Of a stretch of DNA of 64,000 nucleotides, positions 2,421-44,900 are shown piece after piece. The stretch lies in NCBI GenBank assembly GCA_032718475.1, contig JAUCBJ010004465.1, positions 12,864 to 76,863 of the forward strand. The letters run 5' to 3'. Every line of letters begins with the position of its first letter. Positions within the stretch are counted from its first letter, which is position 1. The position numbers and the translations under genes were made by a program. A model generated the notes under the pieces. The model worked only from the letters and a program-made list of their open reading frames with translations. It was not told the DNA's origin and did not search any database. The DNA is from Nemertoderma westbladi (lineage: Eukaryota; Animalia; Xenacoelomorpha).

Positions 2421-4131
2421 TGTGAGCGGATTCAATTCCGCCTCATTACCCCCATAAAGTTTGGAAGTGGCGCCTTTTTCAGCAATATTGGAGATACGAG
2501 ATTGATAACAACCAATCTCGTATCACACCCAATAACGGGGATAACTCATACCCCAAAAGCCACACAAAGGGAGGTTAGAGGTCAAACCACCTCGAGAGGG
2601 CAAGTAACCAACAGCGGGGGAGAACTACTACTACTACTACTAGGATCGGCATGCTGCATTGCAGCTGCATTTTTAAGAATGCTGTGCCGGCTTGTCAACA
2701 AAATTGCACCGCCACAACTCCCTATCACCCATGACATTTGCTAGATCATCCGCATCTTTAAGGCCAGTGTCCTTTAAGATGCGTCTCAAGAAAGTCATGG
2801 GCTGTCTACCATGCTTATTCACTCCATGAGGCTGCCAAAGTACAAGATTATGCACTGGCTGGTCCTCACGGCGAAAGCAATGTCCTGCAAAGCGGAGGCG
2901 ATTTTGTTCTAGTGTCAAGCTTGGGGGAACCAATGAGACACCTCCAATGTTATAGTGTCTGGTTGGAGATGTGTGCATTGTACTTGACACAATGTACCCG
3001 GCGTAGCATTCTTGTGAATGTGCCATCCAGAGATTTGGTGTCCTCAGCAGTTAGAGCCCAGCATGGACTCCCGTAGAGGAGTACTGGAACTACTGCTGCT
3101 CTAAATAATCGGACCTTAAGTTTCCGATTAATTCTAGGTGACTTCCAAATCCTGGAAAGCCTATTCAAGGCTGCCCATGCCTTTCCCTTACGTATTCGAA
3201 GGTCCTCACCTGACTTCCGGATCCATGATCCCAGGTAACAGAAGTCGTCCACATGCTCAAGCATACCATCCTTTGAGCTTATGCTCATCCGATCAGAGAC
3301 TTGCTGAGGACTTTCAAAGTTAACTGTCAGAATTTTGGTCTTTCTGGAGTTAATAAAAAGACCAACACTAGAAGCAGCATGTTCTAATGAGCTGAGGAGC
3401 CGCTGGGCTCCCTCTAATGATTCTGAGAGTACTCCTAAGTCATCAGCAAAGTCTAGATCAGTTAGGTACGTGGCAGGATTTCCTCGACTTCTGGAGCCAG
3501 TAGGTGGAGTTAACATCACCCCATCATCATTATGATGATCTAAGGACATGCGTAGAACATAGTCAACCACAATAATGAACAAGAATGGTGCAAGTGTGTC
3601 TCCTTGGAGGACGCCCCATAACACTTCAAATGGTTCTGTGTCACCATCAACAGTAGACACAAATGTTGTCGAACCATCGTATACTGATCTGATTGCTGCA
3701 ATAATTTCATCAGGAATCCCATATAATGAAAGTATGAAAGAAGCACTCCCACAGAGGTGAGATGCGTGAAGTAGGTTATGAGCCAGCGGGGGAGAGTATC
3801 CACTGGACAAAGGCCACAGTAGTGTACTAATTATACATATATTATCCTGCTACCGGTCAGTTAATCAGTTTACTCAGTCATTCAGTTCAGTGCAGACTGG
3901 TGATATCTTTTACCGTCACTGTCACCACATATCATCAATATTATCACTACTGGTACACTGGTATTATCGATATCATATTAACTGTGCTACTATTTACTAT
4001 TATTAATTTACTATACTATATTATCAATTATCGATCGAATATCAAGACGGTAACAACAAACTTTATATCATTTCAAATACCACAGTGACGCGTAATCTGA
4101 CAACCGGTCGGGATCCCTTGATCCCGTCACA
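2421..4131 (+). repeat. 5' LTR of element A, interrupted by an RTE insertion
   Basis: TGTGAGCGG...CCCGTCACA, near-identical to 34069-34667 once 2625-3738 is removed. Confidence 0.93.
2625..3738 (-). mobile_element. 5'-truncated RTE-like LINE (RT C-terminal half, frameshifted), (TAG)n tail
   Basis: RT motifs GVLQGDTLAPFLF, LDFADD and FCYLGS. (CTA)n tail on the + strand at 2625-2643. Absent from the 3' LTR. Possible short TSD AGAA. Confidence 0.9.
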
Positions 4132-4158
4132 GTAAAAGATATCCCAACACTATAAACT

Positions 4159-6887: not shown

Positions 6888-6965
6888 CCGCTCCCAGAAA
6901 ATGGGATTTAATTCTATAAAATATAAAAAATCACAGTTTCTAAAATATAAAAATACTCTAAACAG

Positions 6966-18161: not shown

Positions 18162-18294
18162 GTTTGTTTGTACAGTTGAATGCCTACTGCTATATTACAG
18201 TTAAAGCAAGTCTAGTAATTCAGTATCAACTGTTAGCCTAGTAATTAATTACCGATACTGTTACTCAGTGTAACGTGATATATATATATAATAT

Positions 18295-19627: not shown

Positions 19628-20202
19628 TAAATATTACGCTACGCGTACAGACTACTCAAACAAAATACAGACCAAACACTGGCAGACTACTATCAAGCCT
19701 AAACAAACTACAGTATATGCAGACTCCGAAATGGTTAGTTAGTATGCGTTCTAACCGAGTAGTACGACTTATTCTTTCAGGGGGATTTACCTCACAGCAC
19801 TGGAAGCCCCTACGTTCCTAACTAGTACTTTATTGGACATACACTCTACACACACCGCACTCTCTTCAGACCTAACAACAGCCAGACAACAATCCAGCCT
19901 ACAAATTATCTAAATAAGAAATATTACGCTACCCGTACAGACTACACAAACAAAAATACAGACCAAACACTGGCAGACTACTATCAAGCCTAAACAAACT
20001 ACAGTATATGCAGACTCCGAAATGGTTAGTTAGTATGCATTCTAACCGAGTAGTACGACTTATTCTTTCGAGGGGATTTACCTCACAGCACTGGAAGCCC
20101 CTACGTTCCTAACTAGTACTTTATCGGACATACACTCTACACACACCGCAATCTCTTCAGACTTAACAACAGTCAGACAACAGTCCAGCCTACAAATTAT
20201 CT
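19628..20202. repeat. Tandem duplication of about 290 bp in the element B leader
   Basis: 19631 and 19921 both begin ATATTACGCTAC and align through to CCTACAAATTATCT. Confidence 0.9.
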
Positions 20203-20552
20203 GTACAATCTGAGCAGGCTTACACGCCTTCTGCTCAATATTGGCCTACAAATAAATAAAACTGACAGAAATAAGTAAAATCCCAATAAAAAACCAGGGC
20301 GGGCCCACCCTGATTAAATATTAAGGCCTACCGGTATATAATTATCAAATCGAATAATACTACTGTACCTGTACTGCTGTAAGTACCGGTCCGGGTGGTT
20401 AGGAAGTCAGGCCTACTAGGTACCGGTTGACCGGTACTTCAGCTTTATTGCCTACGTTGCAATACAGAAGCAATAACTGTTATTGTTCTTACCAGAACAA
20501 TATTAAACTGTATTTATTGCCTACACTGCAATCAGAAGATTATAACTGTTAT

Positions 20553-20775
20553 TGTTCGCGCTTTCAGACCTTTAGCAGTTTAACCTGCCAAATTTGGATG
20601 TCTTCTAGATTATAAATCGACTTTAGCCTATGACGAGTATTTGATACACTACATTAGCCGAAGCCAGTCTATGCGCGACCATTCACCCACTGGATATACC
20701 CGGGAGACTGGATTCGGAAGCTTTGACCTTATTGCGGTGTAGGCCTACTGTATTATTCGACTGATTGTTAATATC
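20553..20775 (-). repeat. Extra 223-bp copy of the element B LTR U5 end
   Basis: Matches 5713-5935 with one visible mismatch. Confidence 0.92.
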
Positions 20776-20936
20776 AACAACATCCGACAACGACGGCGGC
20801 CTATGAGCTAAGTAGCAAAGGTGAACGGACACTAACACTACTACAGTAGGCCTGCTACACTCTACTGTTGTACTGATACTAGCTAATAAATGGGTTGCTA
20901 AGCAACCTTGAAGATGGTTGCTAAGCAATCGAATCT

Positions 20937-21362
20937 CATGCCAACTACACACACATGCCAAATACACATATGCCAACTACACACACATGCCAACTACACA
21001 CACATGCCAACTACACACACGTGCCAACTACACACATATGCCAACTACACATGCCAACTACACACACATGCCAACTACACACACATGCCAACTACACACA
21101 CGTGCCAACTACACACATATGCCAACTACACATGCCAACTACACACACATGCCAACTACACACATGCCAACAACACACGTGCCAACTACACACACATGCC
21201 AACTACACACACATGCCAACTACACACACATGCCAACTACACACACGTGCCAACTACACACACATGCCAACTACACATGCCAACTACACACACATGCCAA
21301 CTACACACATATGCCAACTACACACACGTGCCAACTACACACATGTGCCAACTACACACACA
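20937..21362 (+). repeat. Minisatellite TGCCAACTA(CA)n, about 15-19-bp units
   Basis: Directly visible. Confidence 0.95.
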
Positions 21363-21425
21363 TAAAAAATCAGATTTTATGTGTAAAGTTGACTGGCACT
21401 TGTGGGCTTCCGTAAGTATCTGAGG

Positions 21426-22598
21426 TGTTTGCGCTTTTAAGACCTTTGACAGTTTAACCTGCCAAATTAGGATGTCTTTTAGATGATAGATAGTCTTTAG
21501 CCTATGACGAGTATTTGATACACTACATTAGCCGAAGCCAGTCTATGCGCAATCATTCACCCGCTGGATATACCCGGGAGACTGAATTCGGAAGCTTAAT
21601 GATTGATGGTGTAAGCCTACTGTATTATTCGACTGATCGCAATATATAATCTCTGACAAATATTATTCACTTTCGGGAAATATTAACAGTTCCTTTAGGA
21701 TGTGGCGCTCTAAATATGTAAACAGAGTTATGACTTACACTAGACACAATGGGATGGCTATTGGTTCACGTATAAAGCGCATTCTTTAGGAGATGCTTTG
21801 TTATCAGTCACAATCATGCACACTACCGCACAATGCTGCACACCGATCTGCCGACCTTCACTAATTTTAGTCACATATAAAGAGAACAGCAATCGACTCA
21901 TGTAGTGCCTATGAAATAGCATTAGATTCACTCCAAAACCACTTTAATGTAAGTCGCAATTGTTATATGTAACCGGTCTCTTACCTTCAGTATATCAAGA
22001 AGATTGGGGGTTTTATAATTATTTATCGGTATTATCCAAATATAATAATATTCCATCAACTGATATAATTAATAACCGATAGTAAATAGCAGTAAAAATG
22101 CAGTGTTTGTAGTTGACAATATGATTTGACACACTGACTTGTGATTAGATAACAGTTATACGTTTCTATGACCAAAGCCTACTAATGTTTGGCTAAAGCC
22201 TGAAACACAGAAACTCCAAAGCCGGTCTTCTGGCTGTGGACAAAATACACATACTGACTGCATTGCATGAGTTTCTGTATACAATCTCCAACACAGAGTC
22301 AAAAAACGCTCTGATTTGTCGACCGAACAAAGAACGAACAAAGAACAAAGAAAAAGTTACACGTGTACATATCAGCTGTTAGATGTCGTCATGGTAACTA
22401 CACTGTATCAAGAGGATTTTGGCTTATTGCGACATAAGATCGCTAGTTATGTCCGCTAAAGTACACATACAGAAGAAATGGCTTTTTATGTCCACTAAAA
22501 CACCGGTACAGTAAGGAAACGGCTTTTTATGTCCGTTAAAACACCTACAGAGTACTTTGCGGGGAAAATAACTAGCTAGATCCGCAAAAGCCTTTACA
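21426..22598 (-). repeat. 5' LTR of element B; the first 230 bp or so are diverged
   Basis: Aligns with 5713-6887. Confidence 0.9.
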
Positions 22599-22603: not shown

Positions 22604-25600
22604 TTTCATTCCAGGAAATAATATTTTGTCCGATAATAGTAATTTAAATCCGAGTATCCCTAATTTAAACGCACATAATAATCCAAATAATTCAAATAAT
22701 AACCTAAACCCAAATATAGAAAATATTTAAAATATGCAAAGTAATTCGAATAATTTAAATTTAAATACGCAAAATAATTAAAATAATAATTTTAATTCAA
22801 ACGAGCAAAATATTCCCGATTCCAATCAAAATATACAAAATAATTTAAATAACAATCCGAATTCAGAACATAATTCAAATAAATTAAATAATTTAGAAAA
22901 CAATCTTGATAATGGTGCTATTAATATAAACGCGGCAGATATAGGTGGTCCGGCCAGCGAGAGCCTGCAAGGCCACATAATTAGTACGCAGGGGGTAGCG
23001 GGGGTAAGAGACCCCGACGGGAACCTGGAAGGCCACGTAGTTAATACGCAGGGAGTAGCGGGGGTGAGTCAACCCGACGGGAGCCTGCCAGGCCACGCAG
23101 TGATAGAGGGAGAGGCGGAGGTGAATAGACCCAGCCGCAGTAGAGATAGTGCGTCGACCAGAGAGGGGCGTAGAGGCGAAGCGAGAAATAGTGAAGTGAT
23201 AGGTGGCGAGTGGGGGGGGGGGGCTACAGGAGCCCCACAACGAGAGATTAGCGGCGAGAGGGGGGGGGGGGGGGGGGGGCAGAGAGTGTCCCACAGGCAT
23301 CGGCGGATAATCCCTTGGCGAATTAGGTGGACTGCAGCACCCGGCGACGGAGAATAGTAGGGGGATTACGAATATCCCCAGCGGCGTGCAACCGGGTAGA
23401 GAGAGGGGGGTTGGCTTCGCGAGCGGGCGAGCGACGAGACGTCGAGCCCAGTCAGAAGAGGGAAGAAGAACAGTGGAGTTTAACCGGGAGGTCGAACGAG
23501 AGATCTCATGAGCGGGGATGCTACACTGAAGAGAGAAGAAGAGAAGAGAAAAGAAGAAGCGTCGCTACGAGCGACCGGAGAGCGAGGACAGATAGCGAGC
23601 CGTCGGTAGTAGAGATGGAGTTGGAGAGTCAGTGGGCTCGAACTACGGGAGATTGCCATCGCCCCGGAGAGATGCAGCCTGGCGAGGCATATTATACACC
23701 GAGAGAGGGGTACAGGACGTACCGGCACGAGGACAAGAACAGGAGAGGGGATCGAAGAGAAACTTCCCGATGGGATATAGCTGCCGATCGAGGGTACGGC
23801 AGTCGCGGGGAGGACTTCTTGGATTATTCAAGAAGATTAAACTTCGGACCGGAGGGACACATACAGACTGCAGGACATACTGTAGGCCTTACTGCACATA
23901 CTATAGGCCATGTTGGGAGAGATAGTGTAGGCGATAGGGTAGCGCGGACAACGGGATTAAACCCGGAAGTCGCGGAGTATATACCGGTAGGTAGGCCAGA
24001 AGTGGATAGGCCTATACCGGTACCAGCACAGCAGTATGACTATAACATGCAGGGACATAACATATATCCAGGGGAAGGGAGAGTTATTGCGGATAGGTGT
24101 ATGGGCCCCAATATATTAATATCAACCCCAGTACCAAACATACCACCGGTGGGGGGGGGGGGGGGAGACAGGGTGACATTCCCCCATTACAATATCAACA
24201 ATACACTCAAACAGAAATAAGAACATCGAACCCCCTGGACGAGAACAGGTCTTGTGACACGGAAATATGGAGGGGGCCATTACCCCCAATGGTATATCCG
24301 ACGAAACGGAAGGCAACAGGCCGGACGGCAGGACCGCACCCAACGGGAGAATCTGTACAGCATCCTTCGAACCCATTGGAAGCACAGGCGATCGGAATGG
24401 CTACACTAATCGATGCACTCAAGACCAGAATCGAGCTATCACCCATAGAGCCATTTAAATTCGACGGAAGTAGGCCAGAAGAATACCTGCAATTTCGGCG
24501 CATGTACAGCAAAGAGATATTAACTAAGAACCTGACGCAGGCGGAGTGCCTAAAATATCTACAGGTATATACAGGAGGCCTAGCGTACGACATCGTGAGG
24601 CAGTATCAGGGCATCGAGGGTGGCTTCACGACTGCATGGCGGGCCCTAGACAGGGAATACGGGCATCCGGCCAAGATCATCCGGCAAACCCTGAGGGGTA
24701 TAACATCGGGTGGCCTACAGGATAACCCCGTTAGCATAAAGACGTTTGCGAACAAAGTCGAGAAGGCGTTAATCGTGCTGAAAACATTAGACGCGCCATA
24801 CGAACTTAACCCATCTAATAATATCACCACGATAGCGCAGGCACTGCCGATCTGGCTGTCCAATAAATGGAGAAAGATCGCCTTCTCCACCCAGGAGAAG
24901 AAGGGTGCTGAACCGGGCCTAGAGGAAATGTCGAACTTCCTCAACTACAAAGCCGAATTGATCACGGACCCAGTCTTTAGCGAGGATAGTCTGGGGAAAG
25001 GGCCAAAGACCGAATATAACAGGCCGAAACCAGAACACAACACGGCAAACACATTGCCAAAGCTTAGACAATCGCTGCCATACGCGGCGACGCAGGGGAC
25101 TGCTAGTCCACATGTAGCCGGGGGTAGGGTCACACCATGGAGCGGACAGGGGAAAAATAACAACACAAACAAACATAACCCCAACACGCCCAGTAGGCCG
25201 AACCCAAACAATAAGAACAGTAGGGATCTAGGTACGAACGTAAGTGCGATACGCAGCACACTGTATAGGGACGGCTATAATCCAAACAACAAATGCAAAT
25301 TGCATACGAACGCACTTCATCAGACCAGGAACTGCAGATATTGGCAAGCGTTGCCCAAACAAGATCAGGTAGAATATGCAAGGAAGAGTGGAATCTGTCA
25401 TCGATGTGTGGCGGGCGGACACAGAGCTGATCAATGTAAAGAAACACCAATTAAGTTTGGTCAAGGGAAAGGGCAGACAATGGCGACAAGCACCGTAGGG
25501 GCGAAGAGAAGAGGAACGGTACCACTCGGGGTGGTACCAGTGAGGATGGTCGGAGAAGGCGGTCGATCAGTAACTACTCTGATGCTGGTCGACAGTGGAG

Positions 25601-28600
25601 CAGCCTTCACATTGGTGGAGAATTGGGTGGCTGAAGAGATAGGACTAAAGACAAGGCCAAGTAGGATGGCGGTAACAACCATCTCCAGCAAAGATGAGGT
25701 CCTGGAGATGAGAACGGGACGGTGCGAGATAGCAGCGATAGCAGCGATAGCACCGGGATGCGATTATGGGGCGACCATCGACCCCATCCAGGTAATAGAA
25801 TTGATCAACATCAACACCAGGCGACCAACCAACATCGAGGTCGAACAATACAGATTCCTGGACAGCATCGATTTCTCGATACCAGAGGTGGACGTTAGGA
25901 AGGTATCCATTATAGTGGGAATGGACTGCCTGACAGCCCACGAGAGAATGCAGACGGTCTTCGGCGAAGACAGACAGCATGACCTGATGGCAATTTTAAC
26001 ACCATTCGGGTGGACGCTAAGCGGCCCAATTAGAACCAAGATTCCGTTTAGGATGTCGGAGACATCAGGGTGCATGTTCGCAGGAACTATGAGGGAGATG
26101 GAGGATGAAGGAGTGGAGGAGCAACTCAAGAGACTGCTCAGACAAGACTTTGAGGGACTAAAGGAGACCGGGGTCGGAACCTCGGTAGAGGATAAACAAG
26201 CGATACAAAGCGTAAAGGAGTCGATGAGATGCGACGAGAGCGGTACACCATAGGCATGGTGTGGAAACAACCAAAATTACCGCTACCTGAGAACAAGGGA
26301 ATGGTACTCATGAGGCTTCGTAAACTGAAGCAAACGCTGAAACGGAGCACCGAGAAGGATGAGTACATCCATAAGACGATAAAGAAGTATGTCGAGAAAG
26401 GATGGGCCGTGGAGTTGCCAGTCGACGAACCGAACACGGACAGGACCTATTACTTGCCACTTCACGTGGCTCTAGATCCAAAAAAAGGTAAATTGCGGAT
26501 GGTAGTTGACGCATTGGCTAAAACCAACGGCAAGTGCCTAAACGACTATCTGCTAGAGGGCCCCAATATCTATAACACGGGAATCGAGGTCCTACTGAGA
26601 TCCGTGTTACGGAGGAGGATAGTGACAGCCAGCGCTTCCTATGGTACAACGGCGACGAGGAACCATCGATAATACCAATGTACAAGATGGTGGTGCAGAA
26701 CATGGGGGCCAAGTCGTCCTCGTTTACGACGACTGTGGCTGTAAGAGATACAGTAGAGGGGAAAGTGGGGAAGTATAGCGCCAAAGCGGTCAATATGATT
26801 CAATGCGGCTTCTATGTAGACGACGGAATGGAGCCTGGAAACACGGTTAAAGAACTACTGGATACAGGGTGCGAGGTTCGCGACATCCTGAAGGGATGTC
26901 CTGAAGGGAGGGACATCCTGAGGAGTTTATGAAAGCCATAGAGGACAGACGACCGGAGTCGACCATGGATAACCCTACAACAGCCAAGGGACAGGACATG
27001 GCGAACAAGAGAGTAGAGTCTCAGCAGAAGGCACTGGGGATTGTGTGGAACCGGGAGACAGATGAGCTCAAATATCAACTGAGCCAGGAGGGCGCGGACA
27101 TCCACACAAAGAGGGGCTATGTATCGTACATAGCAAGGATATATGATCCCCTAGGCTTAGCATCCCCACTGTTAGTCACGGGGAAACAGATTCTTAAGAA
27201 AGTATATAAGCTAAAGGACGAATGGGATACAGAGGTCCTGGAAGAAATCAGCAAGCAGTGGAGTAAGTGGACGGAGAGTTTAGAACAGATGGGGACGTAC
27301 AGCATGCCACGCGTGTATTTCCCGGATGGGGACATGACGGATCTGGATCTATACATGTTCTCCGATGCATCATTGGAAGCATACGGGGCGGCACTCTACC
27401 TAGTACATCGAGAGGGGGCTCATACGCCCAGACTTGCATTTAGCAAAGCAAAGTCGACGCTGCCAGATTCAGCATCAGTCCCGAAACTCGAGTTGACAGC
27501 TGCAAGATTAGGAGTAAGGGCCACAGCCTACTTGATGGACACTATTCCCAACATAGTGGAAACACACTACTGGACGGACTCCATGGTAGTGCTTGGTTGG
27601 CTGCACAATGAGAAGACGAGATACCCTATATTCGTCACAAATAGGGTGGACGAAATAAGGGCGACGACAGAGTTGGAAAGGTGGCACTACTGCCCAACGG
27701 ACGAGAACCCAGCAGACTTGTTATCGAGGGGCGTGGCACGCCACACTTTCTTAAAGAAGGAAGTATTGTGGCAGCACGGGCCACAGTTCCTGAACGATAG
27801 GGCGGCCTGGCCACCGATGAAGAAGGTGGACCCGGGCTCAGAGGAAGTAGCACCAGAGGAAGAGGGAGAAGACTCAGAAGGTGAAGAGATATATAGTCAG
27901 ATGGCGGGGGAGATCAGGGGGGGCAACCAAAATTAGAAGAACCATGCGACAACCCGACGGATAAGCTCCTCAGCTACAGCTCAAGCTGGTACAAGACCAA
28001 GAAGTTGGTAGCGTACTGGAGGGCCTTCGGGGATTTCCTCAAGGGAGTTGGCAAGGATGCCAAGAGGAAACCAAACATCGATCTGGAGGGAGTGGCCAAG
28101 GCCGTGATACGGTATGAACAGAGAAAGAACTACGGCGACGAAATGGAACGCATCGGCAAACAACAACATCTTCGCCGGAACAGCGAGCTCATCATGCTGT
28201 CACCACAACTCAATGATGATGGGATTCTAGTAATGAACTCCAGAGTGCTGAATAACAACAGCCTCATCATCCCACCGAAACCCATTATCATCCCAAACAG
28301 ATCGCCGATAGTCCACCAGATCATTTGGAACTCCCACAAGTCGATATTGCACGGGGGCACCAACCAGACCCTCACGGAGATACGGAGGACCTTCTGGGTC
28401 ACGCAGCTAAGAAAGAAGGTGAAGGCGGTAGTGGGGCAGTGCCAGACCTGCCGACGGGCGAGAAAGGAGCGGGCCGTACAGGAGATGGCGCCATTACAGG
28501 CCAGTAGGGTGAGACAGCACGACCCGCCATTCACGCACTGCGGCGTAGATATGTTCGGGCCGATAAAGATCAAGGTGATGCGACACACGGTGAAACGCTA

Positions 28601-29421
28601 CGGCATCATCTTCGTATGTAACAACACGAGGGTGGTAGGAATAGAACTCGCCCAAGACGCAACCGCATCGGCATTCATCAATGCCCTAGAGAGGTTCAGG
28701 GACCGCAAAGGTGGGACGATCACAGTGATCTATTCCGACAATGGAACCAACTTTGTGTGGGCGGAGAACGAGCTGGCGGAGGCCTTGGACATCCTGGAAG
28801 GAGAGGAAGTCAGGGCAGCCATGAGGAGATGACAGGTGAAGTGGGAAAGGATTTTGGATGCGTCGAGAGACTCGTGGGTAGTTCCAAGCATCTGATGACG
28901 AAGTTGATGAACACCCACATGGTGACAGAAGATATACTAAGGACAGTGCTAGCTAAGTGCGAGGGTATCATCAATAGCAGACCGCTATACCCAGAAAATG
29001 ACGACCCAGAATCACTAGATGTGCTGACACCCAGTCATTTCTGATGGAAAGGCCGGCGACCATCGACATGCGGGGTGTAGACCCAGATGACATACACTCC
29101 CGGCAGAGCTGGAAAGTCGCTAAGGCGATAAGCGCAGAGTACTGGAGGAGGTGGGTCGAGGAATACCTACCCACATTACATAGGAGGAGCAAGTGGAGAA
29201 ATACCACTAGAGAATTAAAGAAAGGGGATTTGGTGATTGTCATGGACAACACAATCATCAACAATCAATGGAGGCTAGCAAGAGTAGTAGACACTTACTC
29301 CGACGAGGACGGAAGAGTGCGATCGGTGGAAGTGCGGATAGGGGGTAAGATAGGAGCGAAAGACAGGAAGACCTACAGGAGGGCCGTAGGTAAATGTTGC
29401 CTGCTAGAAGGGGCACCATAG
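22604..29421 (+). pseudogene. Element A gag-pol remainder: gag, protease, RT, RNase H and integrase, with frameshifts and deletions
   Basis: PFKFDGSRPEEY gag core, CHRCVAGGHRADQC knuckle, LVDSGA protease, YVDD RT, FSDASLEAYG RNase H, and CGVDMFGP/SDNGTNF integrase motifs. Confidence 0.93.
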
Positions 29422-29584: not shown

Positions 29585-30235
29585 TAGAAGTTAGTTAGAG
29601 AGTTAGTAAGAGTAGTAAGAGGGTACGTAGTACCGTTAGAAGAGTTAGTAGTAAGAGGGTACGTAGTACCGTTAGTGGAGTTAGTTAGTAGTAAGAGGGT
29701 ACGTAGTACCGTTAGAAGAGTTAGTAGTAAGAGGGTACGTAGTAACATTAGAAGAGTTAGTAGTAAGAGGGTACGTAGTACCGTTAGTGGAGTTAGTTTG
29801 TAGTAAGAGGGTACGTAGTACTGTTAGAAGAGTTAGTAGTAAGAGGGTACGTAGTACCGTTAGAAGAGTTAGTAGTAAGAAGGTACGTAGTACCGTTAGT
29901 GGAGTTAGTTAGTAGTAAGAGGGTACATAGTACCATTAGAAGAGTTAGTAGTAAGAGGGTACATAGTACCATTACAGGAGTTAGTTAGAGAGTAAGATGG
30001 TACGTAGTACCATTAGAGGAGTTAGTTACAGAGTAAGAGGGTACGTGTTGTACCGTTAGTAAGAGTTAGTAGGAGTTAGTTAGAGTGTTAGTAAGAGATA
30101 GTAAGAGTTAGTAGGAGTGTTAGTAAGAGTTAGTAAGAGTTAGTAGGAGTTAGTTAGAGTGTTAGTAAGTGTTAGTAAGAGTTAGTAGGAGTGTTAGTAA
30201 GAGTTAGTAGAGTTAGAGAATTAGTAGGGTTAGTA
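29585..30235 (+). repeat. Purine-rich tandem repeats (GAGTTAGTAGTAAGAGGGTACGTAGTACCGTTA, about 36-40 bp) between integrase and ORF3
   Basis: Directly visible; a related array lies at 62840-63945. Confidence 0.9.
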
Positions 30236-30738: not shown

Positions 30739-33300
30739 ATGGCGGAGAAACTTGTTAGAAAGAGAAAGGCGGAAATGGGTGGAAAGGAGATACTAGTAGA
30801 CTTCACCGAGAGGCATCCAGAGGAGAAGACGGGGGGATACTACGAGCGGTTAGAAAAGGGTCACAAGGCGCGAACGCTGCAGGACCATTTCAGAGAGGTG
30901 CACGAGAGGCGACTGGTCGGGACCTACAGGACGCCGTCGCTAGACAACGCGATCCTCGAGCATTTCCACTACGTGGTGAAGGGAGACGAGGCGAAGTTCG
31001 GGATACCAAAGTATCCGAGGGAACCACCGATAAAGGACTGGAAGAGGTTCGTAGAGTACGTCAGCAGGGGAGGATACATGGTCCTAGACGACAAAGGGAC
31101 CGTGGAAGACGACGAGGGTTCGAGGAGAGGGTCGGCGGGGTTGGCCAGAACCATACTTCTGCATTTGGCTGCGCCAAATGGGGACATATTCCTGTTCGAT
31201 CTGGGAACATATGGGAAGAAGAATGGGCCGAAGTTAAACCGGTTGCCAAGGGCGGTGCATAACATAGTAAGAGAGAAGTCGATGATAAAGGTGGGATCGG
31301 CGATCCGCAACGATGCGGAGAGTATCATCGATCCGGAGACCCCCAACCTCCTGGACATGCAAATGGTCTACATGGCTATGACAGGGCCAGCAGGGTTGGG
31401 ATTAGTAGAAAACATAGGACATTGTGGAGCGGTTGCGATGGGCCAGCTAATGGGGCTCGTCTGCCACAAGCCAATGGACTGGGGTAAATTCAGGGAGGAG
31501 TACGGAGCGGAGTTGGCGAACTCGCTGAAGTGGGGAGCGAGGCCGGGGAAACAGGAGGTGTATCAATTCCGGAGAGGAGCGATAAAGATATATCAGAAGC
31601 GATATATCCTGCAGGAGGATTGGATAATGATAGGTTTACTAAACCTATTCATGGCCATGGTTATCGAAAGAGAGCCAACGGCGTTTCTGCTATCGGGATC
31701 ACCCCTGAACTACAGAAGAGCCTTCAAAGTGGCTTTCGAGGGTCCAGTAGACCACCCGGGGCTGAAGGGCGAGTCGGTATACTACAACTGCCGATATCTA
31801 GTAGACAGGGAGGTGGATACACCATATCAGAGGTGGGAGAAGCTAGAGGCGGATAGACAAGAGGAGAAGCGATTGGAAGAAATCGCTAGACGAGAAAGGA
31901 TGGATGCAGATGAAAGAGAGGCGGAAGATAGAGGAGAGGGCTACGGGTTCGACGCCCAGGCCTTGGACGATTTACAGTGGGCATCAGGGAGCTCAGGCGA
32001 GTCTCTGGGGCGAGAGTTGGGGTGGACAGAAGGATCGCTGAAACAGTCGACATCGGGATTGCAGACGACGCCCATGCCAGCGGGCGCCGAGGGCGATTTC
32101 GCGAAGAGAAGGCCAGGGGAACTGGAAGGATGGAAAGTCACGGGCGAGAGCCAAGGTGGGAAGGGACACTGTGGGTCTACCGGGATACCGGGTTTGGAGC
32201 CACTCCCAGCGGAGGATGAGGATGACGACGAGTTCGGAGAGATGCCGCCCATCGGGAGAATCGGCCACTCAGACACGGACTGTGTTGGCGGGAGAGTGGT
32301 GATGGCCAGCGGGGCGAGGGCTTTCTGGGATAAACCCAGCAAGTGGGCCTGGGTGCATGAGGAGCCGGCGATGGATTTCGCGGGGAGCACCATCAGGTTG
32401 GGCGAGCAACCGGGAATGGCACCACGGGTAGTATTCGGAGAGACGATGCCCAGGCGAGACGAGGACATAGACGTGGACAGAGACGTTAACGTCCAGAAGT
32501 TTGCTTACCAGCGGCTCCATAGACCGAGGAGATCGCTTGGGGTGAAGGACGACTTGGGGCGGGACGCGTTGGTACTCGGCTGCGATTACTGTGGGAGGCT
32601 TACTCACCAGGAAAGGAGCTGCTTGTATCGATTCCAGAAGGGGACAAGCTGCCTCTACTGCCGCGAGTCGAGTCATAGGATGGGAGAGTGTCCACGGTTG
32701 CACAAACGGTGTTCTAAGTGCAACTTCCGGGGGCACTATGGATGCCAGTGCGACTGGATGGACGACGAGGAGAAGTTTAAGATCTTCGAGGAGTGGGCCG
32801 ATGTCGGCGTCATGACGCGGCAGCGGATGAAGGCCCAGGAATTCCGGTGGGGTTTCTTTAATATTAACAAGGAGGCCCACCTGGAAATCATCAAACGGAG
32901 GTTTCCTTTTACTTATCAAGAAGTATCAATGGCAGCATCGTATGCGGGAGTGATGAATACACAGAGGTATTTAGACAGATGGGCACCAGAGAACCGAGGA
33001 GAGTTCAGAGATTTCCTGGCGGAGCATGTGCCACGGGCCAGGAAGGTGATCCTATGGGACGCCACTAGGGGGAAGCAGCAGGGGCATTCAGAGGGGCCAC
33101 CTGCGAAGCGATACCGGGAGCTAATAACAACAGCGCCCAAGGAATCGACGACGGGAATCAGTAGGGAAGTAACAGCAAGGATGAGGAACCTTAAGGAGGA
33201 GAAGGGCAAGGGAGCGGCGACAACCAGGAAGCGACCGAGACAAGACGACGACAGAGGGAAGGAACTGAGATGGTTCCCAAAGACAGGAGGAGCGAACTAG
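30739..33300 (+). CDS. Element A ORF3, about 853 aa from the first ATG: DEDDy/WRN-like 3'-5' exonuclease domain plus three CCHC zinc knuckles
   Basis: Uninterrupted ORF. Motifs YMVLDDKG, LLHLAAPNGDIFLFDL, LPRAVHNIVREKSMIKVGSAIRND and QKRYILQED resemble ExoI/II/III. Three CX2CX4HX4C motifs at 32581-32751. The domain call is by eye. Confidence 0.72.
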   Translation: MAEKLVRKRKAEMGGKEILVDFTERHPEEKTGGYYERLEKGHKARTLQDHFREVHERRLVGTYRTPSLDNAILEHFHYVVKGDEAKFGIPKYPREPPIKDWKRFVEYVSRGGYMVLDDKGTVEDDEGSRRGSAGLARTILLHLAAPNGDIFLFDLGTYGKKNGPKLNRLPRAVHNIVREKSMIKVGSAIRNDAESIIDPETPNLLDMQMVYMAMTGPAGLGLVENIGHCGAVAMGQLMGLVCHKPMDWGKFREEYGAELANSLKWGARPGKQEVYQFRRGAIKIYQKRYILQEDWIMIGLLNLFMAMVIEREPTAFLLSGSPLNYRRAFKVAFEGPVDHPGLKGESVYYNCRYLVDREVDTPYQRWEKLEADRQEEKRLEEIARRERMDADEREAEDRGEGYGFDAQALDDLQWASGSSGESLGRELGWTEGSLKQSTSGLQTTPMPAGAEGDFAKRRPGELEGWKVTGESQGGKGHCGSTGIPGLEPLPAEDEDDDEFGEMPPIGRIGHSDTDCVGGRVVMASGARAFWDKPSKWAWVHEEPAMDFAGSTIRLGEQPGMAPRVVFGETMPRRDEDIDVDRDVNVQKFAYQRLHRPRRSLGVKDDLGRDALVLGCDYCGRLTHQERSCLYRFQKGTSCLYCRESSHRMGECPRLHKRCSKCNFRGHYGCQCDWMDDEEKFKIFEEWADVGVMTRQRMKAQEFRWGFFNINKEAHLEIIKRRFPFTYQEVSMAASYAGVMNTQRYLDRWAPENRGEFRDFLAEHVPRARKVILWDATRGKQQGHSEGPPAKRYRELITTAPKESTTGISREVTARMRNLKEEKGKGAATTRKRPRQDDDRGKELRWFPKTGGAN

Positions 33301-34068
33301 AACTTGGAGGGGGAGATGTGGGGATGCCTGGAAGGCACCACATGCGAAGTAATACGAACTCCTAAGTGCAAATTTAATAAAAGTGCAATTAGTATGTACG
33401 TATGTAATAATCAATAGAATAATAATCATATAATCAATATCCAATATAGTCAAAGTAAGTAGTATAGTCATGTAACCTTTTTTCCAACTAGCTACTGGGA
33501 CTGGGGACCAATCGATTATAACAGGAGGACGGGAGACTAGACGAGACACTACACACTTCACACTTCTTAAGTGCGACGGCACGGAAGGGGAGGGTGAGGT
33601 TCGTCAGGAGTGAATGGGATAAAGTGAGTAAGGGTTGAGATCGCAGGGGAGATAGTGAGAGGTGGTGTTGAGGCGTGTGGAGAGAGTACGGGTGCGATTC
33701 AAATGTGGGGGGGGGGGGGGGGGGGAGTAAGAGGCAGAGTAAGGGACAAAGAGGTCCGAAAGTGGAGTGGAGTTAGAGTGGAAGTAGAGAGAAGTTAGAG
33801 TCAGTTTAGAGTGGAGTGGAGATTTAAAAATTGTGTGAGAGGAGTCCACAATTGTCTCGAACCGAGACGCCAGATGTCTTGGTGCAACATAGATTGGGGT
33901 TGCACCAAGACGGGGTAGTAATATCATACCCAGAGGGAGCGGCCTGGAAAGCCGACTCCAAGTAAAAGAATTCCACCCCACACCCGATAGTAGATCGGGT
34001 TCCAGCGGAATTGAAGCGCACTCATTGGTGATGCTATCTTCTCACCGGGAAGATAGCATGGGGGGGAG

Positions 34069-34667
34069 TGTGAGCGGATTCAATTCCGCCTCATTACCCC
34101 CATAAAGTTGGGAAGTGGCGCCTTTTTCAGCAATATTGGAGATACGAGATTGATAACAACCAATCTCGTATCACACCAATAACGGGGATAACACATACCC
34201 CAAAAGCCACACAAAGGGAGGTTAGAGGTCAAACCACCTCGAGAGGGCCAGTAACCAACAGCGGGGGGGGGGGGGGGGGAAGCACTCCCACAGAGGTGAG
34301 AGGCGTGAAGTAGGTTATGAGCCAATGAGAGCGGGGGAGAGTATCCACTGGACAAAGGCCACAGTAGTGTACTAATTATACATATATTATCCTGCTACCG
34401 GTCAGTTAATCAGTTTACTCAGTCATTCAGTTCAGTGCAGACCGGTGATATCTTTTACCGTCACCGTCACCGTCACCACATATCATCAATATTATCACTA
34501 CCGGTACACTGGTATTATCAATATCATATTAACTGTGCTACTATTTACTATTCATATTATCAATTATCGATCGAATATCAAGACGGTAACAACAAACTTT
34601 ATATCATTTCAAATACCACGGTGACGCGTAATCTGACAACCGGTCGGGATCCCTTGATCCCGTCACA
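34069..34667 (+). repeat. 3' LTR of element A (about 600 bp)
   Basis: Follows the PPT, ends in CA, and is followed by the TSD. Confidence 0.95.
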
Positions 34668-36090
34668 ACTTCCGGTTCACAGGTACTGAATTGAATCCGA
34701 CTTCTGGTACACAGATACTGCATTGAATCATACTTCCGGTTCACAGGCACTGCATTGAATCCTACTTCCGGTACACAGGTACTGCATTGAATCCTACTTC
34801 CGGTACACAGGTACTGCATTGAATACTACTTCCGGTTCACAGGTACTGCATTGAATCCTACTTCCGGTACACAGGTACTGCATTGAGTCCTACTTCCGGT
34901 TCACAGGTACTGCATTGAATCCTACCTCCGGTACACAGGAACTGAATTGAATCCTACTTCCGGTTCATAGGTACTGCATTGAATCATACTTATGGTATAC
35001 AGGTACTGTACTGCATTGAATCCTACTTCCGGTACACAGATACTGCATTGAATCCTACTTCCGGTACACAGGTACTGCATTGAATCATACTTCCGGTATA
35101 CAGGTACTGTACTGTATTGAATCCCACTTCCGGAACACATGTACTGCATTGAATCCTACTTCCGGTACACAGGTACTGCATTGAATCCTACTTCCGGTTC
35201 ACAGCTACTGCATTGAACCCTACTTCCGGTTCACAGGTACTGCATTGAATCATACTTCCGGTACACAGGTACTGCATTGAATCCTACTTCCGGTACACAG
35301 GTACTGCATTGAATCCTACTTCCGGTACACAGGCACTTCATTGAATCCTACTTCCGGTTCATAGGTACTGCATTGAATCATACTTCTGGTATACAGGTAC
35401 TGTACTGCATTGAATCCTACTTCCGGTACACAGGTACTGCATTGAATCCTACTTCCGGTACACAGGTACTGCATTGAATCCTACTTCCGGTTCACAGGTA
35501 CTGAATTGAATCCTACTTCTGGTACACAGATACTGCATTGAATCATACTTCCGGTTCACAGGCACTGCATTGAATCCTACTTTCGGTACACAGGTACTGC
35601 ATTGAATCCTACTTCCGGTACACAGGTACTGCATTGAATCCTACTTCCGGTACACAGGTACTGCATTGAATCCTACTTCCGGTTCACAGGTACTGAATTG
35701 AATCCTACTTCTGGTACACAGATACTGCATTGAATCATACTTCAGGTTCACAGGCACTGCATTGAATCCTACTTCCGGTACACAGATACTGCATTGAATC
35801 CTACTTCCGGTACACAGGTACTGCATTGAATCATACTTCCGGTATACAGGTACTGTACTGTATTGAATCCTTCTTCCGGAACACATGTACTGCATTGAAT
35901 CCTACTTCCGGTACACAGGTACTGCATTGAATCCTACTTCCGGTACACAGCTACTGCATTGAACCCTACTTCCGGTTCACAGGTACTGCATTGAATCATA
36001 CTTCCGGTACACAGGTACTGCATTGAATCCTACTTCCGGTACACAGCTACTGCATTGAATCCTACTTCCGGTTCACAGGTACTGCATTGA
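34668..36090 (+). repeat. 32-bp minisatellite, right part, about 44 units; the last unit overlaps the exon start
   Basis: Same unit as 1391-2420. Confidence 0.97.
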
Positions 36091-38939: not shown

Positions 38940-41900
38940 AAATTGTTAAGTTCTGAAGACCCTGATCTAATAGCGATACTTTCCTTACATTTGTTACGTT
39001 CTGAAGACCCTGATCTAATAGCGATAATTTCCTTACATTTGTTAAGTTCTGATGACCCTGATCTAATAGCGATAATTTCCTTACATTTTTTAAGTTCTGA
39101 AGACCCTGATCTAATAGCGATAATTTCCTTACATTTGTTACGTTCTGAAGACCCTGATCTAATAGCGATAATTTCCTTACATTTGTTACGTTCTGAAGAC
39201 CCTGATCTAATAGCGATAATTTCCTTACATTTGTTACGTTCTGAAGACCCTGATCTAATAGCGATAATTTCTTTACATTTGTTACGTTCTGAAGACCCTG
39301 ATCTAATAGCGATAATTTCTTTACATTTGTTACGTTCTGAAGACCCTGATCTAATAGCGATAATTTCCTTACATTTGTTACGTTCTGAAGACCCTGATCT
39401 AATAGCGATAATTTCCTTACATTTGTTACGTTCTGAAGACCCTGATCTAATAGCGATAATTTCCTTACATTTGTTACGTTCTGAAGACCCTGATCTAATA
39501 GCGATAATTTCCTTACATTTGTTAAGTTCTGAAGACCCTGATCTAATAGCGATAATTTCCTTACATTTGTTAAGTTCTGAAGACCCTGATCTAATAGCGA
39601 TAATTTCCTTACATTTGTTAAGTTCTGAAGACCCTGATCTAATAGCGATAATTTCTTTACATTTGTTACGTTCTGAAGACCCTGATGTAATAGCGATAAT
39701 TTCCTTACATTTGTTACGTTCTGAAGACCCTGATCTAATAGCGATAATTTCCTTACATTTGTTAAGTTCTGGTAGACCCTGATCTAATAGCGATAATTTC
39801 CTTACATTTGTTACGTTCTGAAGACCCTGATCTAATAGCGATAATTTCTTTACATTTGTTAAGTTCTGAAGACCCTGATCTAATAGCGATAATTTCCCTA
39901 CATTTGTTAAGTTCTGAAGACCCTGATCTAATAGCGATAATTTCCTTACATTTGTTACGTTCTGAAGACCCTGATCTAATAGCGATAATTTCTTTACATT
40001 TGTTAAGTTCTGAAGACCCTGATCTAATAGCGATAATTTCTTTACATTTGTTAAGTTCTGAAGACCCTGATCTAATAGCGATAATTTCCTTACATTTGTT
40101 ACTTTCTGAAGACCCTGGTCTAATAGCGATAATTTCCTTACATTTGTTAAGTTCTGAAGACCCTGATCTAATAGCGATAATTTCCTTACATTTGTTAAGT
40201 TCTGAAGACCCTGATCTAATAGCGATAATTTCCTTACATTTGTTACGTTCTGAAGACCCTGATCTAATAGCGATAATTTCTTTACATTTGTTAAGTTCTG
40301 AAGACCCTGATCTAATAGCGATAATTTCCCTACATTTGTTAAGTTCTGAAGACCCTGATCTAATAGCGATAATTTCCTTACATTTGTTACGTTCTGAAGA
40401 CCCTGATCTAATAGCGATAATTTCCTTACATTTGTTACGTTCTGAAGACCCTGGTCTAATAGCGATAATTTCCTTACATTTGTTAAGTTCTGATGACCCT
40501 GATCTAATAGCGATAATTTCTTTACATTTGTTACGTTCTGAAGACCCTGATGTAATAGCGATAATTTCCTTACATTTGTTACGTTCTGAAGACCCTGATC
40601 TAATAGAGATAATTTCCTTACATTTGTTAAGTTCTGAAGACCCTGATCTAATAGCGATAATTTCCTTACATTTGTTACGTTCTGAAGACCCTGATCTAAT
40701 AGCGATAATTTCCTTACATTTGTTACGTTCTGAAGACCCTGATCTAATAGCGATAATTTCCTTACATTTGTTACGTTCTGAAGACCCTGATCTAATAGCG
40801 ATAATTTCTTTACATTTGTTACGTTCTGAAGACCCTGATCTAATAGCGATAATTTCCTTACATTTGTTACGTTCTGAAGACCCTGATCTAATAGCGATAA
40901 TTTCTCTACATTTGTTAAGTTCTGAAGACCCTGATCTAATAGCGATAATTTCTTTACATTTGTTAAGTTCTGATGACCCTGATCTAATAGCGATAATTTC
41001 CTTACATTTGTTACGTTCTGAAGACCCTGATCTAATAGCGATAATTTCCCTACATTTGTTAAGTTCTGAAGACCCTGATCTAATAGCGATAATTTCCTTA
41101 CATTTGTTAAGTTCTGAAGACCCTGATCTAATAGCGATAATTTCTTTACATTTGTTAAGTTCTGAAGACCCTGATCTAATAGCGATAATTTCTTTACATT
41201 TGTTACGTTCTGAAGACCCTGATCTAATAGCGATAATTTCTTTACATTTGTTACGTTCTGAAGACCCTGATCTAATAGCGATAATTTCTCTACATTTGTT
41301 AAGTTCTGAAGACCCTGATCTAATAGCGATAATTTCCTTACATTTGTTAAGTTCTGAAGACCCTGATCTAATAGCGATAATTTCCTTACATTTGTTAAGT
41401 TCTGAAGACCCTGATCTAATAGCGATAATTTCCTTACATTTGTTAAGTTCTGAAGACCCTGATCTAATAGCGATAATTTCCTTACATTTGTTAAGTTCTG
41501 AAGACCCTGATCTAATAGCGATAATTTCCTTACATTTGTTACGTTCTGAAGACCCTGATCTAATAGCGATAATTTCTCTACATTTGTTAAGTTCTGAAGA
41601 CCCTGATCTAATAGCGATAATTTCTTTACATTTGTTAAGTTCTGATGACCCTGATCTAATAGCGATAATTTCCTTACATTTGTTACGTTCTGAAGACCCT
41701 GATCTAATAGCGATAATTTCTCTACATTTGTTAAGTTCTGAAGACCCTGATCTAATAGCGATAATTTCTTTACATTTGTTAAGTTCTGATGACCCTGATC
41801 TAATAGCGATAATTTCCTTACATTTGTTACGTTCTGAAGACCCTGATCTAATAGCGATAATTTCCCTACATTTGTTAAGTTCTGAAGACCCTGATCTAAT

Positions 41901-44900
41901 AGCGATAATTTCCTTACATTTGTTAAGTTCTGAAGACCCTGATCTAATAGCGATAATTTCTTTACATTTGTTAAGTTCTGAAGACCCTGATCTAATAGCG
42001 ATAATTTCTTTACATTTGTTACGTTCTGAAGACCCTGATCTAATAGCGATAATTTCTTTACATTTGTTACGTTCTGAAGACCCTGATCTAATAGCGATAA
42101 TTTCTCTACATTTGTTAAGTTCTGAAGACCCTGATCTATTAGCGATAATTTCCTTACATTTGTTAAGTTCTGAAGACCCTGATCTAATAGCGATAATTTC
42201 CTTACATTTGTTAAGTTCTGAAGACCCTGATCTAATAGCGATAATTTCCTTACATTTGTTACGTTCTGAAGACCCTGATCTAATAGCGATAATTTCTCTA
42301 CATTTGTTAAGTTCTGAAGACCCTGATCTAATAGCGATAATTTCTTTACATTTGTTAAGTTCTGATGACCCTGATCTAATAGCGATAATTTCCTTACATT
42401 TGTTACGTTCTGAAGACCCTGATCTAATAGCGATAATTTCTCTACATTTGTTAAGTTCTGAAGACCCTGATCTAATAGCGATAATTTCTTTACATTTGTT
42501 AAGTTCTGATGACCCTGATCTAATAGCGATAATTTCCTTACATTTGTTACGTTCTGAAGACCCTGATCTAATAGCGATAATTTCCCTACATTTGTTAAGT
42601 TCTGAAGACCCTGATCTAATAGCGATAATTTCCTTACATTTGTTAAGTTCTGAAGACCCTGATCTAATAGCGATAATTTCTTTACATTTGTTAAGTTCTG
42701 AAGACCCTGATCTAATAGCGATAATTTCTTTACATTTGTTAAGTTCTGAAGACCCTGATCTAATAGCGATAATTTCCTTACATTTGTTACGTTCTGAAGA
42801 CCCTGATCTAATAGCGATAATTTCCTTACATTTGTTACGTTCTGAAGACCCTGATCTAATAGCGATAATTTCCTTACATTTGTTACGTTCTGAAGACCCT
42901 GATCTAATAGCGATAATTTCCTTACATTTGTTACGTTCTGAAGACCCTGATCTAATAGCGATAATTTCCTTACATTTGTTACGTTCTGAAGACCCTGATC
43001 TAATAGCGATAATTTCCTTACATTTGTTACGTTCTGAAGACCCTGATCTAATAGCGATAATTTCCTTACATTTGTTACGTTCTGAAGACCCTGATCTAAT
43101 AGCGATAATTTCCTTACATTTGTTAAGTTCTGAAGACCCTGATCTAATAGCGATAATTTCCTTACATTTGTTACGTTCTGAAGACCCTGATCTAATAGCG
43201 ATAATTTCCTTACATTTGTTAAGTTCTGAAGACCCTGATCTAATAGCGATAATTTCCTTACATTTGTTAAGTTCTGAAGACCCTGATCTAATAGCGATAA
43301 TTTCCTTACATTTGTTAAGTTCTGAAGACCCTGATCTAATAGCGATAATTTCTTTACATTTGTTACGTTCTGAAGACCCTGATCTAATAGCGATAATTTC
43401 CTTACATTTGTTACGTTCTGAAGACCCTGATCTAATAGCGATAATTTCCTTACATTTGTTAAGTTCTGAAGACCCTGATCTAATAGCGATAATTTCCTTA
43501 CATTTGTTAAGTTCTGAAGACCCTGATCTAATAGCGATAATTTCCTTACATTTGTTACGTTCTGAAGACCCTGATCTAATAGCGATAATTTCCTTACATT
43601 TGTTACGTTCTGAAGACCCTGATCTAATAGCGATAATTTCCTTACATTTGTTACGTTCTGAAGACCCTGATCTAATAGCGATAATTTCCTTACATTTGTT
43701 ACGTTCTGAAGACCCTGATCTAATAGCGATAATTTCCTTACATTTGTTAAGTTCTGAAGACCCTGATCTAATAGCGATAATTTCCTTACATTTGTTAAGT
43801 TCTGAAGACCCTGATCTAATAGCGATAATTTCCTTACATTTGTTACGTTCTGAAGACCCTGATCTAATAGCGATAATTTCCTTACATTTGTTACGTTCTG
43901 AAGACCCTGATCTAATAGCGATAATTTCCTTACATTTGTTACGTTCTGAAGACCCTGATCTAATAGCGATAATTTCCTTACATTTGTTACGTTCTGAAGA
44001 CCCTGATCTAATAGCGATAATTTCTTTACATTTGTTACGTTCTGAAGACCCTGATCTAATAGCGATAATTTCCTTACATTTGTTACGTTCTGAAGACCCT
44101 GATCTAATAGCGATAATTTCCTTACATTTGTTACGTTCTGAAGACCCTGATCTAATAGCGATAATTTCCTTACATTTGTTACGTTCTGAAGACCCTGATC
44201 TAATAGCGATAATTTCCTTACATTTGTTAAGTTCTGAAGACCCTGATCTAATAGCGATAATTTCCTTACATTTGTTAAGTTCTGAAGACCCTGATCTAAT
44301 AGCGATAATTTCCTTACATTTGTTAAGTTCTGAAGACCCTGATCTAATAGCGATAATTTCTTTACATTTGTTACGTTCTGAAGACCCTGATCTAATAGCG
44401 ATAATTTCCTTACATTTGTTACGTTCTGAAGACCCTGATCTAATAGCGATAATTTCCTTACATTTGTTAAGTTCTGAAGACCCTGATCTAATAGCGATAA
44501 TTTCCTTACATTTGTTACGTTCTGAAGACCCTGATCTAATAGCGATAATTTCCTTACATTTGTTAAGTTCTGAAGACCCTGATCTAATAGCGATAATTTC
44601 CTTACATTTGTTAAGTTCTGAAGACCCTGATCTAATAGCGATAATTTCCTTACATTTGTTACGTTCTGAAGACCCTGATCTAATAGCGATAATTTCTTTA
44701 CATTTGTTAAGTTCTGAAGACCCTGATCTAATAGCGATAATTTCTTACATTTGTTAAGTTCTGAAGACCCTGATCTAATAGCGATAATTTCCTTACATTT
44801 GTTACGTTCTGAAGACCCTGATCTAATAGCGATAATTTCCTTACATTTGTTAAGTTCTGAAGACCCTGATCTAATAGCGATAATTTCCTTACATTTGTTA

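Follow-up and report, generated by a model that had tools for sequence, protein, structure and literature searches.

A conserved third gene with a predicted DEDDy exonuclease fold and three zinc knuckles in BEL/Pao retrotransposons

A BEL/Pao element of Nemertoderma westbladi carries a third gene (ORF3) encoding a protein with a predicted DEDDy exonuclease-fold domain and three zinc knuckles. BEL/Pao elements have been described with gag, pol and sometimes env (PMC8742986); ORF3 is a conserved third gene other than env, present over deep branches, and it is invisible to Pfam. We consider the chances about even that it is a long-standing BEL/Pao accessory gene encoding a factor that would bind the 3′ end of the element's own RNA, for which cutting would be optional. 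The function of DEDDy nucleases borne by retrotransposons, and their need for catalysis, have been in question since 2017, and the occurrence of putatively live and dead natural versions of ORF3 in related clades provides a ready comparison. All positions are those of the window, i.e. the whole stretch of 64,000 nt that was analysed, and the features are itemized in Table 1.

Organization of the element and of ORF3

The element extends from 2421 to 34667, and is bounded by a 5-bp target duplication (ACTTC at 2416–2420 and 34668–34672). The same 32-bp satellite adjoins both of its ends. The LTR pair is identical at 568 of 576 aligned bases, and the insertion is thus young. Pfam matches in gag-pol are DUF1759, Asp_protease_2, Peptidase_A17, Integrase_H2C2 and DUF5641, of which the last, on the integrase side, lies at 29002–29421 upstream of ORF3. 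The assignment to BEL/Pao is based upon Peptidase_A17, DUF1759 and DUF5641, the order PR-RT-RH-IN, and TG..CA LTRs with a target duplication. The gag-pol order, the LTRs and the polypurine tract are as in the Belpaoviridae, genus Semotivirus (PMC8742986). The ICTV profile of that family names env as the only third gene and gives replication as tRNA-primed (PMC8742986), and neither suits this element. A second BEL/Pao element (element B) is nested on the minus strand at ~5713–22598, within the 5′ part of gag.

ORF3 is located between pol and the polypurine tract with the 3′ LTR, and is separated from pol by a spacer of 1.3 kb that includes a series of tandem repeats. It is free of stop codons, while each of the other five frames has 19–46 stops over the same stretch. 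A sequence-only reading of this DNA had described an 853-aa frame in the position of env, open throughout, and this is what is found. It had also contrasted the open frame with the damaged gag-pol. This is true as seen, but only suggestive; ~8 frame changes are counted over the 6.6 kb of gag-pol, and the probability of zero in 2.56 kb is 0.05–0.07. The frame changes all go in the same direction, a pattern that assembly errors could yield.

Following the exonuclease-fold domain the chain is predicted to form a long charged helix, and then continues as the linker into the knuckles. The linker is acidic, as the sequence-only reading had it, with 49 Asp and Glu against 32 Lys and Arg in residues 365–600, and is predicted to be disordered. 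The knuckle strings that it had picked out are all present and have exact spacing (C615–C628, C638–C651 and C658–C671). The Pfam zf-CCHC model gives no score on the ORF3 of the window.

The N terminus of ORF3 is not hydrophobic (Kyte–Doolittle value of −0.3 for the first 40 residues), and a strong membrane segment is absent, the 19-residue maximum being 1.47. Among the 68 family members this value exceeds 2.0 in none and 1.6 in 14. Neither the signal peptide, the membrane anchor nor the fusogen fold of an envelope glycoprotein is found in ORF3; with the enzyme fold described below, this bears out the earlier view that it is not env.

Table 1. Features of the ORF3-bearing BEL/Pao element, in window coordinates
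Feature	Position	Strand	Basis or remark
5′ LTR	2421..4131	+	split by LINE fragment ~2621-3739; found by self-comparison
Primer-binding position, no TGG	4132..4143	+	exact 12-nt complement of LTR segment 3902-3913 / 34447-34458
BEL/Pao gag-pol	22782..29421	+	~nine frame pieces; 5′ part ~4174-5712, ahead of nested element
Tandem repeats, 36-42 bp units	29611..30234	+	in pol-ORF3 spacer
ORF3, 853 aa: DEDDy domain, linker, three CCHC knuckles, helical tail	30739..33300	+	ATG 30739, stop 33300
Exonuclease-fold domain (predicted)	31024..31698	+	profile without query, 61 bits; EXD2 profile match; model vs Nibbler
ExoI, D117-D118-K119	31087..31095	+	Lys at second acidic position; codon 31093-31095
ExoII Asp, D192	31312..31314	+	family alignment
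ExoIII, Y289-x3-E293	31603..31617	+	column: Glu in 16/67 homologues, Asp in 36/67
Long charged helix (aa 362-397), predicted	31822..31929	+	structure model, its residues 312-347
Acidic linker (aa 415-594), predicted disordered	31981..32520	+	pLDDT <50
Three zinc knuckles, CX2CX4HX4C	32581..32751	+	10 invariant columns across 68 sequences, all here
Conserved helical tail (F683, G690, T693, G705 region)	32752..32988	+	pLDDT 80-96
Polypurine tract	34060..34068	+	directly before 3′ LTR
3′ LTR (TG...CA)	34069..34667	+	self-comparison

The predicted exonuclease fold and its active site

A Pfam scan of the ORF3 protein matched nothing, so that the exonuclease assignment required other evidence. Of the two models that had been suggested as a check (DNA_pol_A_exo1 and zf-CCHC) neither scores the query, and in the family the gathering cut-off of DNA_pol_A_exo1 (PF01612) is missed, one of 68 members reaching 23.3 bits against 23.6. 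A profile made from 29 long relatives with the query left out matches query residues 60–360 (61 bits, E = 1.6e-20). The homologues behind this profile were chosen via the knuckle region only, and the N-terminal domain is thus common to the family. Searching the PDB with a profile of all 68 sequences gave EXD2 (E = 1.4e-13), Trypanosoma brucei RNase D (TbRND; 4e-8, with its two domains each matched), Egalitarian (2.4e-4) and WRN (0.02), and the match to EXD2 extends over the helix ahead of ExoI. The single ORF3 sequence gave a best PDB match of E = 0.15, which falls on the knuckles.

AlphaFold with the 68-sequence alignment returned a model in which the N-terminal domain and the knuckle–tail region are mostly of high confidence and the linker is below 50; the model from the single sequence (pLDDT 34) was dropped. 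Foldseek places Nibbler, Egalitarian and TbRND at the head of the matches to the model, with EXD1 also among them, and the PDB matches include Egalitarian with bound I-factor RNA. VIA-align superimposes the model on Nibbler with Z = 13.9 (rmsd 3.2, 200 residues aligned); NrnC and the WRN and Pol I exonucleases tie with Nibbler within 1 Z unit. The N-terminal domain has a DnaQ/RNase H-like DEDDy fold, established as far as prediction allows. The WRN/Mut-7/EXD type of exonuclease seen by the sequence-only reading is thereby borne out, by both the EXD2 profile match and the Nibbler superposition, and the structure prediction that it had called for gave a DnaQ-like fold. Identity to EXD2, Nibbler and WRN-type proteins is ~13–15%, and the fold matches point to no single subfamily. 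In the ESM Atlas the N-terminal part falls near unnamed clusters (0.91–0.92) and a DNA_pol_A_exo1 cluster (0.90), and the C-terminal part scores 0.85 or less; these are leads only. A BFVD structure search gave nothing beyond generic exonucleases.

EXD2 (PDB 6k17) is the best match in sequence and Nibbler/Mut-7 (7jw2) the best in fold. These, like WRN, are host genes that lack the knuckle module present in ORF3. TbRND (PDB 7c42 and 7c45) resembles ORF3 in that tandem CCHC knuckles come after a DEDDy domain, but is a cellular mitochondrial enzyme with four knuckles and a short linker, whereas ORF3 has three knuckles, a linker of 100–430 aa and a helical tail. The two architectures are probably convergent.

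ExoI reads D-D-K and not D-x-E in this copy, as was noted earlier. D117 and K119 are on a predicted strand (aa 113–121), and D117 is preferred as the start of ExoI on account of this strand and because the family alignment has F104, V108, G112 and D117 in register. The other candidate for ExoI, D124-x-E126, falls within a loop of low confidence and was ruled out. In TbRND the ExoI glutamate is indispensable for cleavage, according to the available text of PMC7797062; since lysine occupies this position here, the copy in the window is likely to be inactive, and the earlier suspicion to this effect is probably correct. D192 of ExoII and Y289 of ExoIII are in place. At 293 of ExoIII stands Glu, where most relatives carry Asp, a point absent from the sequence-only reading; this Glu is common to the present copy and its four nearest homologues.

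The family is divided in its active site. Among 67 homologues 7 are unscorable owing to gaps; all four catalytic acids are kept in 33 of the remaining 60, and at least one is lost in 27. The nearest homologues (P0004, P0008, P0010 and P0059) keep all four, the acidic ExoI included. Since over half of the scorable homologues, with the nearest four among them, keep the acids, catalysis would seem to matter in many lineages.

Distribution, inheritance and constraint

A HMMER search of 1.84 billion proteins found 68 relatives, all via the knuckle region, of which 29 are at least 470 aa in length. Three word-based homologue searches gave no match, which reflects a limit of sensitivity given the 68 found by HMMER. 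A scan with a degenerate knuckle pattern gave at least 120 metagenome loci, 80 of these with flanks; as the scan selects intact knuckles, their conservation among the loci is partly built in. A knuckle pattern had no match in viral contigs. The C-terminal domain profile matches 116 of the 120 listed loci, and in 44 both domains are in one open frame.

BEL/Pao pol is present upstream on the same strand in 30 of the 34 listed loci with at least 4 kb of upstream sequence. Of the four misses, one has only its own long ORF (L005), one a DUF5641 remnant (L022) and one no detectable pol (L012); the fourth, L071, was a chance match and is rejected as a family member. Where a listed locus has 2.5 kb or more of upstream sequence, the exonuclease domain is found in 45 of 48 cases, a count that is not independent because the profile includes many of these loci. 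Two loci, L047 and L059, carry pol together with knuckles but no detectable exonuclease domain. Many of the listed loci represent complete elements, in which ORF3 follows one gag-pol frame of 2100–2380 aa. Pfam applied to 11 ORFs from relatives gave Peptidase_A17 with DUF5641 in eight, protease with DUF1759 in one and nothing in two. In five relatives ORF3 is in frame directly behind the pol stop, an arrangement that would suit read-through from pol; this is not so in the others, nor in the copy described here.

Contigs of the same organism that match ORF3 number 7581, 5267, 5405 and 65 in four runs, which derive from at most three samples; the window itself may come from one of these. All 30 ORF3 bins are covered in three of the runs, and the best 12 of 117 indels by support are every one outside ORF3. 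Fifteen of 32 listed ORF3 variant sites are synonymous against 22–30% expected (p = 0.002–0.03; 40 of 1006 rows), a weak hint. ORF3 is multi-copy and widespread and not a one-off; presence in this copy only, which would have told against the sequence-only reading, is excluded.

The concept of an exonuclease ORF3 is itself not new, being known from rotifer elements. DEDDy ORF3s occur in the bdelloid rotifer LTR retrotransposons Juno1/2 and Vesta2/5, and in Athena/Terminons (available text of PMC5408684; see also the accessible parts of PMC6431247, PMC5718144 and PMC6338049). As described there, they too are separate ORFs in the env position that lack a membrane segment and have a motif altered from DEDD. 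No triple knuckle or helical tail appears in the available text of PMC5408684, and the catalytic residues given for the rotifer proteins are intact (DEED), whereas a whole clade of the BEL/Pao ORF3s is pseudo-nuclease. The same text argues for recent acquisition and exchange of the rotifer ORF3, in contrast to the co-divergence with pol over deep branches seen here. The carriers also differ, being BEL/Pao here and Juno or Vesta in rotifers; the two groups are compared by their descriptions. Juno and Vesta are gypsy-like. We found no BEL/Pao exonuclease ORF in print, although Repbase, GyDB, subscription papers or supplements may hold one, and the word 'exonuclease' is absent from the available text of PMC3118150 and PMC13524379. 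ORF3 is apparently undescribed in BEL/Pao elements.

Distances between ORF3s and between the corresponding pols are closely correlated (Mantel rho = 0.92 for 22 elements, a value reached in 0 of 5000 permutations). This suggests that ORF3 has long been inherited vertically together with pol. In a clade of 13 members in the pol tree (support 96/99) the active site is degenerate in all nine members that could be scored, and members of the degenerate clade have long open gag-pol frames (e.g. L031, L037, L062 and L069). The group with intact nucleases forms a clade in a quick pol tree, and is unresolved in a more careful one. In the careful tree the fewest catalytic state changes is 1, with the pol of the window on a long branch of unsure placement; this pol is far from every sampled relative. 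On the number of catalytic losses that tree supports no conclusion.

The comparison of dN/dS between ORF3 and pol that had been proposed gave values well below 1 for ORF3. For the N-terminal domain pairwise values are 0.19–0.51 where the active site is degenerate (7/7 pairs) and 0.09–0.49 where it is intact (6/8 pairs computable). The C-terminal domain gives 0.04–0.40 and pol 0.05–0.16 (six computable pairs), the N-terminal domain thus lying above pol; these ratios are rough, since the pairs are not independent of one another and dS approaches or exceeds 1. There is no sign of positive selection in this coarse pairwise test. By these ratios ORF3 is clearly constrained with or without an active site. 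The knuckle ligands are all kept in 16/16 of the degenerate group and 16/16 of the intact group. What is constant across lineages is the knuckle module and the fold and not the active site, in part built in by the search.

These results bear on whether ORF3 could be an env-like protein or a recently captured neutral passenger. The position that it occupies is that of env. Against this, the N terminus is not hydrophobic, no member of the 68 exceeds a Kyte–Doolittle value of 2.0, the model has an enzyme fold, and ORF3 has diverged together with pol at dN/dS well below 1. Such an origin is hardly credible, and we regard it as refuted by fold, hydropathy, co-divergence and dN/dS together.

Candidate roles of ORF3

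Selection persists where the cutting residues have been lost, so ORF3 likely works mainly by gripping RNA. In the mechanism that we propose the DEDDy-fold domain and the three knuckles would bind single-stranded RNA and hold its 3′ end. The knuckles would provide affinity and feed the 3′ end into the DEDDy pocket, by analogy with TbRND, where RNA binding is supplied by the CCHC domain (available text of PMC7797062). Members with four acids may trim the RNA, while pseudo-nuclease members, probably including the copy in the window, may cap or carry it, as Egalitarian does. The element's own RNA would thereby be protected or processed. Like EXD1, the exonuclease-fold domain of Egalitarian (ExoHD; PDB 9uju and 9rw3) binds RNA with no need of catalysis, and its putative catalytic residues are dispensable according to the available part of PMC13186709. 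Egalitarian differs in its use of LOTUS-like domains and BicD, and nothing similar was detected in ORF3.

That the ligand is RNA we infer, and put no higher, because the WRN and Pol I DNA exonucleases share the fold at the same Z and because knuckles can bind single-stranded DNA. CCHC knuckles bind this as well as RNA. The equally good fit of the WRN and Pol I domains to the model would suit a helper on the DNA side, one that corrects errors of reverse transcription or resects the cDNA ends ahead of integration, as would the four acids kept in 33/60 scorable homologues. Yet an entire clade whose gag-pol frames are long and open has lost the site and kept the gene under selection, and ORF3 is separate from RT, with no fusion. 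A role as proofreading aid, raised by the sequence-only reading, is weakened in that nearly half of the family lacks catalytic residues and is nonetheless under purifying selection; we think a DNA-side function improbable.

A TGG is missing downstream of the 5′ LTR, and so the element has no recognizable tRNA primer site. The primer-binding position is instead complementary to a segment of the LTR, the chance expectation of such a 12-nt complement being 4e-5. The pairing is present in the lowest-energy fold (z = −2.75), with a geometry that suits priming. ORF3 might then be a nuclease that trims the element RNA back to the primer-site duplex, as had been suggested, and since the pol of the window is far from sampled relatives, a local re-use, or supply in trans to element B, is conceivable. 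But TGG-type sites are found in 20/20 listed relatives that show the 5′ junction (TGGCGCC in 18), including nine with intact and six with degenerate nucleases; 25 listed relatives were inspected, five of them having no 5′ end, and the site was judged by motif. The expected co-occurrence of ORF3 with a self-complementary site is thus absent in all 20. In element B an exact 12-nt self-complementary site occurs as well, and there the ORF3 profile finds no match. Given these two observations ORF3 is not tied to the self-complementary site. In addition ExoI is degenerate in this copy, and in a second copy (from 59214) the complement is only 9 nt and the fold no better than shuffled sequences (z = −0.71). 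Trimming of a self-primer is largely refuted as the role of the family, and is very improbable as an explanation of ORF3.

Compared with the preferred reading, in which ORF3 would act on the element's own RNA, a counter-silencing function overlaps in mechanism and differs in target. Here ORF3 would trim or sequester host piRNAs or siRNAs, or act as a decoy for Nibbler, Mut-7 or EXD1 complexes, the dead forms being sponges. Nibbler, Mut-7 and EXD1 act in small-RNA pathways. Nibbler is the top structural match and EXD1 is also among the matches; both live and dead forms of ORF3 are kept, and the copy number in this organism is high (5267–7581 matching contigs in three runs). However, the best sequence match is EXD2, which is not known as a small-RNA enzyme, and the coarse pairwise dN/dS gives no sign of positive selection. 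Moreover, according to the available text of PMC5408684, which is also a source for the small-RNA roles of Nibbler and EXD1, the copy number of rotifer elements is not clearly tied to the presence of a DEDDy ORF3. We hold counter-silencing, also raised by the sequence-only reading, to be possible, if rather unlikely. A stronger version is doubtful; in this ORF3 would be an ancient BEL/Pao-wide counter-defence, a captured EXD2/Nibbler-type nuclease that, fused to the RNA-binding knuckles, would trim or sequester the 3′ ends of host piRNAs and would repeatedly have been turned into a dead decoy. Were host small RNA the target, ORF3 would be an element-encoded suppressor of RNA silencing in animals.

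Primer positions of the host element and its relatives

The host BEL/Pao retrotransposon is a candidate self-primed element. The 12 nt at its primer position (4132-4143) are exactly complementary to a segment of the element's LTR (3902-3913; 34447-34458), and TGG is absent there. By eye, initiator-like motifs are seen directly upstream of the LTR complement. Exact 12-nt self-complementarity is also found at the primer position of element B, a BEL/Pao element nested within the 5′ part of the host gag, with LTRs of ~1175 bp that are 96.8% identical to each other. The env position of element B (~6966-8287) is occupied by an unrelated ORF region, which is broken.

A second copy, related to the host element at 72-83% identity, is internally deleted, passing from the LTR through the 5′ gag region to the tandem repeats that in the host lie in the spacer between pol and ORF3. 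Compared with the first copy, its primer position and LTR complement show matching differences, but they pair over only 9 nt.

Features of the window and of related metagenome loci
Feature	Position	Strand	Remark
Second relative of host element	59214-64000		internally deleted
Element B, nested BEL/Pao	5713-22598	minus	
Element B, additional LTR-end piece	20553-20775		
32-bp satellite array	1391-2420 and 34668-36090		encloses host element
48-bp unit array	38943-50233		233 copies, 11 kb
LINE fragments	2-1012, 2635-3284, 54588-57390		endonuclease + RT, identified from translations
L047 BEL/Pao ORF3	L047:3341-6529		1063 codons
L059 BEL/Pao ORF3	L059:6880-9648		923 codons

Variant ORF3s and the pol junction

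The ORF3s of L047 and L059 both contain the knuckle module. No exonuclease domain was detectable in either, and Pfam gave no clear match; the N-terminal part is either a different domain or a strongly diverged one. At five related loci (L029, L031, L068, L069 and L080) the ORF3 frame starts right after the pol stop codon and in-frame with pol, an arrangement in which read-through from pol into ORF3 is possible.

Frame changes and surrounding repeats

All frame changes in the host gag-pol (22782-29421) are in a single direction, yet LTR identity is 98.6%; the one-directional changes could be assembly error. The 48-bp array generates artefactual open frames of great length. The LINE fragment at 2635-3284 matches 54588-55238 at 96%.
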